From the NCBI GenBank assembly GCA_902612065.1, contig CACMBY010000007.1, positions 5,951 to 69,950 on the forward strand: DNA of 64,000 nt. The letters are read 5' to 3'. Shown piece after piece: positions 29,660 through 46,063 of the stretch; the first letter of the stretch is position 1; every line of letters starts with the position of its first letter. Source of the DNA: an uncultured Pelagibacteraceae bacterium (lineage in GTDB: Bacteria > Pseudomonadota > Alphaproteobacteria > Pelagibacterales > Pelagibacteraceae). The translations under genes and the position numbers were made by a program. The notes beneath the pieces were generated by a model. It was not told the origin of the DNA, made no database searches, and worked only from the letters and a program-made list of their open reading frames with translations.

Positions 29660-29667
29660 AATTAATC

Positions 29668-29695
29668 CTTAAAAAATTTTTAACAAATTTGTAAC
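29668..29695 (+). promoter_or_regulatory. Pho box array upstream of plcP
   Basis: CTTAAA(29668)/TTTAAC(29679)/TGTAAC(29690) at 11-bp period. Confidence 0.7.
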
Positions 29696-29726
29696 ATTTA
29701 AATGAGATAAGAAATACATGATTCGT

Positions 29727-29743
29727 GTTACAGTTGTATTAAA
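29727..29743 (-). promoter_or_regulatory. Pho box oriented toward the lipid kinase gene
   Basis: Minus strand reads TTTAAT-ACAAC-TGTAAC (11-bp period). Confidence 0.6.
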
Positions 29744-29757
29744 ATATAGGCCTTTAA

Positions 29758-42199: not shown

Positions 42200-43697
42200 A
42201 AGTAAAAATAGTTTAAAATTAAAACAGGCAAAATTAGCTATAATAGACATTGGATCAAACTCTATAAGAATGCTAATTTATGAAGATTTCAGTTCTTCTC
42301 GTGTGCCTTTTTTTAATGAAAAAGCAGTTTGTGAACTTGGAAAAAATTTAGATAAATCGAAAAAACTTCACAGATCTGGTACTGAATATGCTTTAAAAGT
42401 TTTAAAAAGATTTTCTGAAATTTTAAATGTTTCAAAAATCACAAATCTAAAGATTATTGGAACAGCAGTTATAAGAGAAGCAACTGATACAAAACCTTTT
42501 ATTGATGAAGTTGAAAAACTTTTTAAAACTAAGATTAATATATTATCAGGCGAAGAAGAAGCTAAATGCACAGCTGAGGGAGTAAAAATAGGTTTTGAAA
42601 ATGTTGATGGATTAGTTGCTGACCTTGGCGGTGGTAGTTTGGAGTTAGCCCGAGTTGAAAACAATATAGTAACCAATAAAACCTCATTACCTGTTGGTGT
42701 TTTAAGATTAATGAATAATCCTATAGTTAAAAAAAGAAATTTAGCAAAATATATTAAAAAATTATTAAGAGATGAAAAATGGCTCTCAAAAAAGAAATTT
42801 AATAATTTATATTTAGTCGGAGGTACTTGGCGTGCATTATTTAAATTACATCTTTTTCAAAATAATCATCCAGTACACATAATTCATCAATATAGTATTG
42901 ATAATAATGTTTTATCTAAGTTTGTTGAAAAAATTTCATCTTTTAATAAATCTAAACTTAAAACAGTTGAGTATATTTCAAAATCTAGAACAGCGTATTT
43001 ACCTTATAGTTGCATTATACTTGATGAAATTATGAGAGTTACAAATCCAAGAAATATAATTTGTTCTATAAGCGGTTTGCGTGAAGGTTCTTTATCAATT
43101 GACTATTTTAAAGATGTAAAAGAATCAGAAATTTTTCATAAAGCACTTGAGAATATTGCAAAAAAAAGAGGTGATCTAGGATCGAACTATAAAAAATATT
43201 ATGATTTTATTCAGCCAGTTTTTGAAGGCAATGAACATTTTAATAAGAAATTATTATATCTGGCATGTGTATTAAGTCATATGGATTGGGGATTAGGAGC
43301 ATTTCAAAAAGCTGAATTGGTATTTCAAGAAACAATAAATACTCCTTTACTTAGATTGACTCATAAAGAAAGAATACAATTAGCTTTGTCATGCTATTGG
43401 CGGTACTGTAGTATCAAGTATAATCCAAAGATCGAGTATTTAACTTTTTTAAATAATAATGAAATTTTTTCAAGCAAACAAGTTGGTGCAGCATTGAGAT
43501 TTTCACAATCATTGACCTCGATATCTACGATATTTCTTGAAGAATTTAAATTGTATAAAAGAGGAAATGCTGTATTTTTAAAAATTCCATCACAACATCA
43601 AGAAATAATCTCAAAACAAGTTACTAAAAGATTTAAAGCTCTTGCTAGAGAATTATTTTTAGAACCAAGAGTAATTTACTCAAATAATTCAAGATAA
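42186..43697 (+). CDS. ppx: Ppx/GppA exopolyphosphatase
   Basis: DIGSNSIR, EEEA, DLGGGSLE, GLREG. Confidence 0.92.
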   Translation: MEVIKSKNSLKLKQAKLAIIDIGSNSIRMLIYEDFSSSRVPFFNEKAVCELGKNLDKSKKLHRSGTEYALKVLKRFSEILNVSKITNLKIIGTAVIREATDTKPFIDEVEKLFKTKINILSGEEEAKCTAEGVKIGFENVDGLVADLGGGSLELARVENNIVTNKTSLPVGVLRLMNNPIVKKRNLAKYIKKLLRDEKWLSKKKFNNLYLVGGTWRALFKLHLFQNNHPVHIIHQYSIDNNVLSKFVEKISSFNKSKLKTVEYISKSRTAYLPYSCIILDEIMRVTNPRNIICSISGLREGSLSIDYFKDVKESEIFHKALENIAKKRGDLGSNYKKYYDFIQPVFEGNEHFNKKLLYLACVLSHMDWGLGAFQKAELVFQETINTPLLRLTHKERIQLALSCYWRYCSIKYNPKIEYLTFLNNNEIFSSKQVGAALRFSQSLTSISTIFLEEFKLYKRGNAVFLKIPSQHQEIISKQVTKRFKALARELFLEPRVIYSNNSR

Positions 43698-43736
43698 ATT
43701 AAATTTAATTCTATTTTTAATTGAGTGATATTTTTT

Positions 43737-43812
43737 TGTAACATTATTTTAATTTAAATTCATTTAACTTTAACAATAAGTAAATAATTTTGTAATTTAG
43801 TTTATGTATAAA
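43737..43812 (+). promoter_or_regulatory. Pho box array plus -10 element with no downstream plus-strand gene
   Basis: TGTAAC(43737)/TTTAAT(43748); ATTCAT(43758)/TTTAAC(43769)/GTAAAT(43780)/TGTAAT(43791); 10-nt spacer; TATAAA(43807-43812). Confidence 0.6.
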
Positions 43813-43817
43813 GCACC

Positions 43818-43910
43818 ATCAAAGTTTAAATATTCATTATTTCTTCCCCTGTTTAAATTTTGTTAATTAACTACTTTCTTCCTTCTCATTTAAGAGAAGG
43901 AAGAAAGACA
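43818..43910 (+). ncRNA. Candidate PhoB-dependent small regulatory RNA
   Basis: Pho-box promoter upstream; stem 43821-31/43851-61 with a CU-rich loop; 14-bp perfect terminal hairpin; complementarity to the aapJ RBS region. Confidence 0.5.
43874..43907. terminator. Perfect 14-bp hairpin between convergent units
   Basis: CTTTCTTCCTTCTC-ATTTAA-GAGAAGGAAGAAAG; no strong U-tract on either strand. Confidence 0.65.
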
Positions 43911-43918
43911 ATTTGGAA

Positions 43919-44128
43919 TTAATTATTTATAGATGCAGGAGACTGCTCTGCATTTTTCTTAGCAAGCTTTTTTGCTTTTTTTTCAGCAACCTTTTTTTCT
44001 AGACCAGCAATTTTAATATTAAGGCTTGATAATTTTTTTTCTTTAGCTGTAATTTTATTTTTAAGTTTATCAATTGATTTTAATATTTTTGTTTTTTTCT
44101 TTTCATTTTTTTTTAGTTTTTTTCTCAT
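43919..44128 (-). CDS. Small lysine-rich coiled-coil protein
   Basis: 69 aa with 24 Lys and heptad-like Leu/Ile spacing; strong GGAGG SD 5 nt before ATG. Confidence 0.75.
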   Translation of the reverse strand: MRKKLKKNEKKKTKILKSIDKLKNKITAKEKKLSSLNIKIAGLEKKVAEKKAKKLAKKNAEQSPASINN

Positions 44129-46004: not shown

Positions 46005-46011
46005 CTCTCTT

Positions 46012-46045
46012 TCTATATTTAGGTTTTGTTAAGAATTTATTACAG
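46012..46045 (-). promoter_or_regulatory. Pho box plus -10 for the ars operon
   Basis: Minus strand reads CTGTAAT-AAAT-TCTTAAC-N10-TATAGA-N7-ATG. Confidence 0.7.
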
Positions 46046-46063
46046 ATTAAAGAAAAAAAATTC

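Follow-up and report, generated by a model that had tools for sequence, protein, structure and literature searches.

We describe a predicted small RNA (sRNA) that represents a new family, present in some marine SAR11 bacteria and encoded among their phosphate-starvation genes. The family came to light in a 64,000-nucleotide stretch of DNA from an uncultured Pelagibacteraceae bacterium (GenBank assembly GCA_902612065.1, contig CACMBY010000007.1, positions 5,951 to 69,950, forward strand; hereafter the window), where the putative gene lies between ppx and a convergent gene for a lysine-rich protein of 69 amino acids, K69. It is very likely that the element is a real structured RNA gene read from the plus strand, and we lean, with a good deal less assurance, towards its being an independently transcribed regulatory sRNA tied to the surrounding island of phosphate (Pho) genes. 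The conserved inner hexamers of its promoter-like block, the -10 element and the covarying hairpins together lie far beyond chance.

A structured RNA gene downstream of ppx

The plus strand of the window carries pstSCAB-phoU-phoB-ppk-ppx. The last of these genes ends at 43697 and the stop of K69 is at 43919, leaving an intervening gap of 221 bp (43698-43918). Into this gap an earlier interpretation made from the letters alone (the sequence-only reading) had placed an RNA gene on the plus strand, with two stems, preceded by six Pho-like hexamers and a TATAAA box. Each coordinate given for these elements agrees with the sequence: the hexamers begin at 43737 (TGTAAC), 43748 (TTTAAT), 43758 (ATTCAT), 43769 (TTTAAC), 43780 (GTAAAT) and 43791 (TGTAAT), and TATAAA (43807-12) follows the last of them (43791-96) at a distance of exactly 10 nt. 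The features of the locus are listed below; R1 is a covariance model introduced with the homologues.

43698-43752, no strand: spacer 3' of the ppx stop, containing the first two hexamers (43737, 43748) and otherwise found only in L072
43753-43796, plus strand: upstream block, candidate PhoB-like activator site; four hexamers in 11-bp phase; 47 distinct extended sequences
43807-43812, plus strand: -10-like hexamer TATAAA, 10 nt past TGTAAT
43819-43918, plus strand: predicted sRNA transcript of ~100 nt, both ends being predictions; R1 match at 43810-43928(+), 107.5 bits
43820-43862, plus strand: hairpin 1, from the computed fold; five pairs with two-sided changes
43863-43873, plus strand: single-stranded linker of 11 nt, UAAUUAACUAC
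43874-43907, plus strand: hairpin 2, 14 bp, putative terminator; 95.5% of cells paired; three pairs with two-sided changes
43908-43918, plus strand: 3' tail ACAAUUUGGAA with a weak U-tract, following hairpin 2
43919-44128, minus strand: K69 (from translation), the sRNA's constant neighbour

The plus strand from 43815 to 43925 folds into two hairpins at -29.4 kcal/mol (z = -5.5), a stability matched by none of 200 shuffles; folding of the minus strand is weaker (z = -2.7). The first stem had been read as 11 bp (43821-31 with 43851-61); it is present, and the computed fold extends it to 13 bp, with 43820-32 paired to 43850-62 around a 17-nt loop at 43833-49, UUCAUUAUUUCUUCCCC. The perfect 14-bp hairpin reported by the same reading is reproduced in the fold, with 43874-87 pairing with 43894-907. 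No clear U-tract had been seen after this terminal hairpin and it is indeed weak in the window; in most homologues an ACAA/ACGA spacer leads into either 6-7 consecutive U or a U-rich tail with an interruption (UUUAUUU). Hairpin 2 is probably the terminator of the sRNA, shared two-way with K69 and, in the window, with read-through from ppk-ppx. The sRNA gene is single-copy in its genome.

Conservation and covariation

Homologues were sought in 151 genomes of the same family, in which g1 denotes the genus of the window and g2 a second genus. Sequence matching 43753-43914 was present in 11 of the 21 g2 genomes (77% identity) and in one other g1 genome (69%), the remaining matches being A/T-rich noise. 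The neighbouring 3' end of ppx is only 70% identical, and the DNA from ppx to 43753 is unalignable between lineages by local alignment. A covariance model built from three lineages (R1) recovered the same 13 genomes from this set. Applied to a wider set, obtained by a pattern scan of species-representative genomes, R1 gave 68 Pelagibacteraceae genome matches comprising 39 distinct sequences; 66 of the 68 lie on contigs from the pattern scan, the window and L015 making up the rest. The element occurs both in single-cell genomes and in one complete genome (G126), and a metagenome scan added 13 further marine contigs, some of them from the Sargasso Sea.

The claim that the sRNA was undescribed has held. 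Rfam 15, searched at E <= 10, returned no family match (the best overlapping hits scored 13.7-18.9 bits against gathering thresholds of 55-208, with E of 2.4-5.4), and our literature search found no paper on this RNA.

Across the 39 distinct sequences, standard pairs fill 91.7% of the pair cells, compared with 47-63% once the partners are displaced by 1-3 columns. Two-sided changes occur in eight pairs, five in helix 1 and three in helix 2, and the observed covariation was reached by 0 of 500 shuffles. The non-canonical pairs also carry information on the strand: counted on the plus strand, helix 2 contains 68 G-U against 22 A-C cells and helix 1 contains 34 against 15, while the ten core pairs of helix 2 contain 18 G-U and no A-C cells. 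These counts argue for an RNA read from the plus strand, because a minus-strand RNA would carry C-A mismatches at the G-U positions. Conservation, compensatory changes and G-U bias thus all back the plus-strand RNA gene of the sequence-only reading.

Among the homologues hairpin 1 has a loop of 17 to 31 nt, varying by insertions and deletions that are not multiples of three. In the window this region contains a 20-codon ORF on the plus strand and a 3-codon ORF on the minus strand, both unconserved among the homologues. The unconserved ORFs and the lengths of the insertions and deletions indicate that the element is non-coding and no decayed gene start. A coding reading of either strand was accordingly rejected, the start codons too being unconserved.

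A promoter-like block upstream of the RNA

The conservation extends beyond the RNA. Upstream lies a block of ~45 bp as conserved as the RNA itself, with the layout ATTMAY-N5-T[GT]TAAY-N5-[GAT]TAAA[TA]-N5-TGTAAY (TGTTAC in g2) among the 47 distinct extended sequences. In every intact homologue, that is in all except the truncated L072 and L088, the last TGTAAY is followed at a distance of exactly 10 nt by a TA-initiated hexamer, whose variants are TATAAA, TAAGAT, TAAAAG, TAAGAG, TAAAGT and TAGTTT. Stem 1 begins 5-8 nt past this putative -10 in all lineages, and no -35 element is found at the sRNA promoter. The two outermost hexamers (43737, 43748), which had been counted as members of the array, do not belong to it: they fall outside the conserved block, in the spacer shared only with L072.

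The block, the -10 and the RNA occur together downstream of at least three unrelated sequences, namely ppx, the ppx terminator hairpin of g2, and an EamA-type or other gene. Since the block is kept behind all of these, it points to a transcription unit in its own right, with a start near 43819, and the sRNA probably has a promoter of its own.

Two lineage-specific arrangements may be recorded here. The g2 genomes have ~220 nt of unrelated spacer between ppx and the conserved block, and in L004-L013 ppx has a GC-rich terminator hairpin of its own with a T-run, ~90-120 nt upstream of the block. From L088 (3100-3271) and L072 (6450-6615) the promoter block has been lost together with the 5' arm of hairpin 1, while a loop remnant and hairpin 2 are retained; the deletion in L088 apparently occurred between two copies of ATGTTTAAA.

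Possible links to the phosphate regulon

Control of the sRNA by phosphate through PhoB is a plausible suggestion from its position and promoter motifs, to which we give an even chance or slightly better. The pstS promoter of the window contains TTTAAC-N5-TGTAAC-N5-TGTAAT (33504-31), which is kept in relatives and includes the sole strict TGTAAY-N5-TGTAAY site in the 1.17-Mb genome. Ten looser dimer sites exist genome-wide, and four of them sit in the 17-kb island, at pstS and in the gap between plcP and the diacylglycerol (DAG) kinase gene. Hexamers 2 and 4 of the sRNA block are identical to the pstS/plcP half-sites and run in the same direction.

The spacing from the last hexamer to the TA element had been likened to that of the ars promoter, and the comparison is sound: the ars and DAG-kinase promoters share this geometry. 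In the window the DAG-kinase promoter (29660-29757, minus strand) reads TTTAAT-N5-TGTAAC-N10-TATTTC, and the ars/DUF6552 promoter (46005-46063, minus strand) reads TGTAAT-N5-CTTAAC-N10-TATAGA.

The sRNA-K69 pair always lies within the Pho island, in one of two alternative positions, as seen when L060, L069, L076, L015 and others are compared with window positions 25866-46004. In the first it follows ppx; in the second it lies between housekeeping genes (396-aa/EamA) and the DAG-kinase/plcP-agt-phoR-pstS cluster. The two positions imply either that the pair moved as a unit or that the island was rearranged.

A further site of this kind lies outside the window, on contig C2 of the same genome (G000), in the gap upstream of the gene for UDP-glucose dehydrogenase (L168, 1245-1305); a sugar-nucleotide epimerase gene stands at this gap in the opposite direction. 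The site reads TTTAAT/TGTAAT/TGTAAT and then N10-TATATA, its strong and weak hexamers alternating in the layout of the sRNA promoter, and it is one of only two other matches to the full pattern in the genome. The product of the enzyme, UDP-glucuronate, is a likely precursor of the glucuronic-acid glycolipid made under phosphate starvation. The site may be another Pho promoter.

The exposed loop and its candidate targets

Although hairpin 1 varies in length, its loop has a constant content: (C/A)AUUAU(U), then a C/U-rich run (UCUUCCCC, UCCCC, CCUCC, CUCUCC or CCCUC). In nearly all 39 variants this AUUAUU plus C/U-rich motif is predicted to be unpaired, in an apical or internal loop of stem 1. 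The motif is complementary to a purine-rich ribosome-binding site followed by the A/U spacer before a start codon, and in the modelled structures it would supply the conserved single-stranded seed of a trans-acting sRNA. Of the two loop elements singled out in the sequence-only reading, the C/U-rich run resembling an anti-Shine-Dalgarno sequence is conserved, while the CAU proposed as an anti-start codon occurs only in some lineages. The idea of a target beginning Met-Asn is likewise unsupported, the loop CAU being unconserved.

Duplex energies were calculated for the loop against all candidate start regions of the window's own genome. The best predicted partners are rplR (-22.5 kcal/mol) and rplV (-22.2 kcal/mol). 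Both belong to a ribosomal-protein operon (contig C8 of G000, 63312 and 67629, minus strand), and the start region of rplR contains a perfect 14-nt complement of the loop across its AUG. Three results count against a specific partnership. Nineteen shuffled loops gave a best energy of -22.4 +/- 1.8 kcal/mol, equal to that of the real loop; rplR was rejected as a conserved target, its 14-nt complementarity dropping to ~7-11 nt in three other carrier genomes; and the loop and the K69 ribosome-binding site show no co-evolution, own pairs averaging -9.84 and cross pairs -9.94. Genome-wide prediction, which had been put forward as a way to the target, therefore yields no candidate that beats the shuffled controls.

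No start site matched the loop complement with two or fewer mismatches over 14-17 nt, and none of the Pho-island genes stands out, the best being phoU (-16.1) and K69 (-14.5). The complementarity to the aapJ leader that had been pointed out does exist; at -13.9 kcal/mol it is unremarkable, 44 of 1209 ORFs being equal or better.

The Hfq domain (PF17209) was not found in the window's genome (88% complete) or in five relatives (92-100%), in a search that matched the control genomes. An Hfq-dependent sRNA presupposes hfq in the genome, and these six SAR11 genomes gave no sign of it.

Because no target beats the controls, the case for pairing with ribosome-binding sites rests solely on the conserved anatomy of the loop, and we put such action forward tentatively, at a little less than an even chance.

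A proposed mode of action

Taken together, these observations would fit an RNA gene of ~100 nt at ~43819-43918(+), served by an activator-dependent promoter at 43753-43812. Under phosphate starvation, PhoB would bind the phased T[GT]TAAY hexamers, which would take the place of a -35 element, and switch the RNA on. Transcription would start at the foot of hairpin 1, which would display the loop; the 11-nt linker and a strong terminator hairpin would complete the molecule. The loop could then pair with one or several mRNAs at their ribosome-binding sites and lower their translation, a form of repression that would operate without Hfq.

It is tempting to speculate further that the RNA acts not as a gene-specific regulator but as a phosphate-starvation-induced mimic of the anti-Shine-Dalgarno end of 16S rRNA, a notion that we consider distinctly improbable. 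Such a mimic would need to keep only the generic complement of a ribosome-binding site, the C/U run and AUUAUU, and could tolerate large changes elsewhere in the loop. At high copy it might compete for strong ribosome-binding sites, for example those of the ribosomal-protein operon that contains the top predictions, rplR and rplV. If true, ribosome synthesis, the largest phosphorus sink of the cell, would be reduced.

The K69 neighbour

K69, or the region of its stop codon, follows the RNA wherever the sequence extends far enough, in both arrangements, and hairpin 2 ends 11 nt from the K69 stop. The gene is more widely distributed than the sRNA: among the 151 genomes K69 is found in 35, spread over six genera, and the sRNA in 13, so that 22 of the 35 K69 carriers have no sRNA. 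In four other genera K69 is followed only by a plain GC-rich terminator hairpin, and an unfiltered search for divergent sRNA copies beside K69 in other genera found plain terminators only. The K69 genes (also L151-L167) share an invariant GGAGG ribosome-binding site.

The small hydrophobic membrane toxin, always accompanied by its antisense RNA, that a type I toxin-antitoxin locus would have is not seen here. The sRNA and K69 are unlikely to form a toxin-antitoxin pair, because K69 often occurs alone and its product is hydrophilic and lysine-rich.

Alternative explanations

Several observations weigh against an independently transcribed sRNA under Pho control. Both the transcript with its ends and its induction are deduced from the DNA, and the invariance of the linker among homologues, save for one A/C position, is partly an artefact, the pattern used to collect most of them including that stretch. 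At the promoter only hexamers 2 and 4 are good, and since these strong half-sites lie 22 bp apart a dimer matrix scores the site low, at 2.3-7.6 bits as against 17-21.6 bits for five other island sites, which were scored on a matrix built from themselves. Genome-wide, 580 positions exceed 8 bits on this matrix. The pattern T[GT]TAAY-N16-TGTAAY occurs nine times in the genome, where ~10 are expected by chance; hexamer counts alone are not above chance, and the genome encodes two further OmpR/PhoB-type regulators. The same figures, together with hexamers 1 and 3 that are indistinguishable from A/T-rich background, would suit a real sRNA outside PhoB control, its block either binding another OmpR-type regulator or giving a constitutive promoter an A/T-rich, UP-like element. 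We regard this as rather unlikely, given that both arrangements place the sRNA within the Pho island, that hexamers 2 and 4 reproduce the pstS/plcP half-sites in direction as well as sequence, and that the hexamer-N10-TA geometry is common to the DAG-kinase and ars promoters. The PhoB induction claimed by the sequence-only reading is plausible: island location, half-sites and spacing speak for it, the want of two good adjacent half-sites and the low matrix score against it. In most genomes the block begins ~5 nt or less past the end of ppx and no terminator intervenes, a generic sigma-70 promoter and terminator scan made no call in the gap, and the sRNA could also arise by read-through from ppx. 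Hairpin 2, with only 11 nt between it and the K69 stop, might then be simply a two-way terminator and hairpin 1 an accessory part of the 3' untranslated region, the whole being the 3' end of ppk-ppx or another transcript, processed or not. That there is no independent gene in this sense seems improbable: the block, -10 and RNA stand behind at least three unrelated upstream sequences, the spacing from TA-hexamer to stem is fixed, and K69 in other genera makes do with a plain terminator hairpin and nothing more.

The constant company of K69 raises the question of action in cis, of the kind known from type I toxin-antitoxin loci and from convergent antisense pairs. The two transcripts would overlap by their 3' ends across hairpin 2, which lies only 11 nt from the stop codon, and each might affect the stability or termination of the other; the RNA does adjoin K69 in both arrangements wherever the sequence can be followed. 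Against such a role, the hydrophilic, lysine-rich K69 protein is no membrane toxin, 22 of the 35 K69 carriers sampled lack the sRNA, the loop and the K69 ribosome-binding site do not co-evolve, and the conserved, exposed C/U-rich loop would be left unexplained. We hold this, too, to be improbable. Less probable by far is a feature of the minus strand, whether an element in the 3' untranslated region of K69 or the decayed Shine-Dalgarno sequence and ATG of a lost gene or mini-ORF, the latter being the scenario by which the sequence-only reading had thought it might itself fail. The translation-start appearance that it described is present in the window, where the minus strand reads a Shine-Dalgarno-like run, a 7-nt spacer and ATG AAT ATT TAA, and a similar 3-codon ORF exists in g2. 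The ORF is unconserved, however: the ATG is missing in many lineages and the length is anything between 0 and 26 codons. The bias of the G-U pairs is towards the plus strand (18 against 0 in the helix 2 core), the minus-strand fold is the weaker one (z = -2.7), and a conserved block beyond the terminator would have no explanation.

Significance and comparison with known systems

Transcription factors are very few in SAR11 bacteria, whose known RNA regulation consists mostly of riboswitches. Within the literature that we searched, we know of no trans-acting sRNA characterised in SAR11. A conserved sRNA in the Pho island would mean that the response to phosphorus scarcity is also controlled after transcription, and would provide a test case for sRNA function in cells in which hfq was not detected; the element is, moreover, short and sharply defined.

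Among known regulators, the alphaproteobacterial AbcR1/AbcR2 are among the closest in outline. These sRNAs are ~100 nt long, with C/U-rich anti-Shine-Dalgarno loops and an intrinsic terminator, and repress the translation of transporter and binding-protein mRNAs according to nutrient status. The SAR11 RNA is likewise ~100 nt in length, with an exposed C/U-rich loop and a terminator, a likeness whose homology was compared via Rfam only, where there is no match. It differs in being single-copy rather than a tandem pair, and AbcR1/AbcR2 need Hfq, whereas hfq was not found in the six SAR11 genomes. The RsaE/RoxS-type sRNAs of Firmicutes, in which unpaired C runs pair with the G-rich ribosome-binding sites of many mRNAs, can act without Hfq. 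They share with the SAR11 RNA a C-rich unpaired loop; their phylum and sequence are unrelated, and the regulators that control them differ (redox and nitric oxide), whereas the SAR11 RNA is a resident of the Pho island.

Links between sRNAs and phosphate are known elsewhere. Haloferax sRNA132 and cyanobacterial PsiR1 are reportedly induced with the Pho response, as shown experimentally, and are said to be tied to phosphate uptake genes. They have no sequence relationship to the SAR11 RNA, whose induction, in contrast, is suggested by position and promoter motifs only.

The promoter itself invites comparison with the Pho box of E. coli, in which CTGTCAT-N4 direct repeats in 11-bp phase replace the -35 element and end ~10 nt before the -10. 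The sRNA site departs from this arrangement in alternating good and poor half-sites, so that the strong ones are 22 bp apart. It resembles it in its direct T[GT]TAAY hexamers, which run along the coding strand in 11-bp phase and end exactly 10 nt before the TA-hexamer of a promoter that has no -35.

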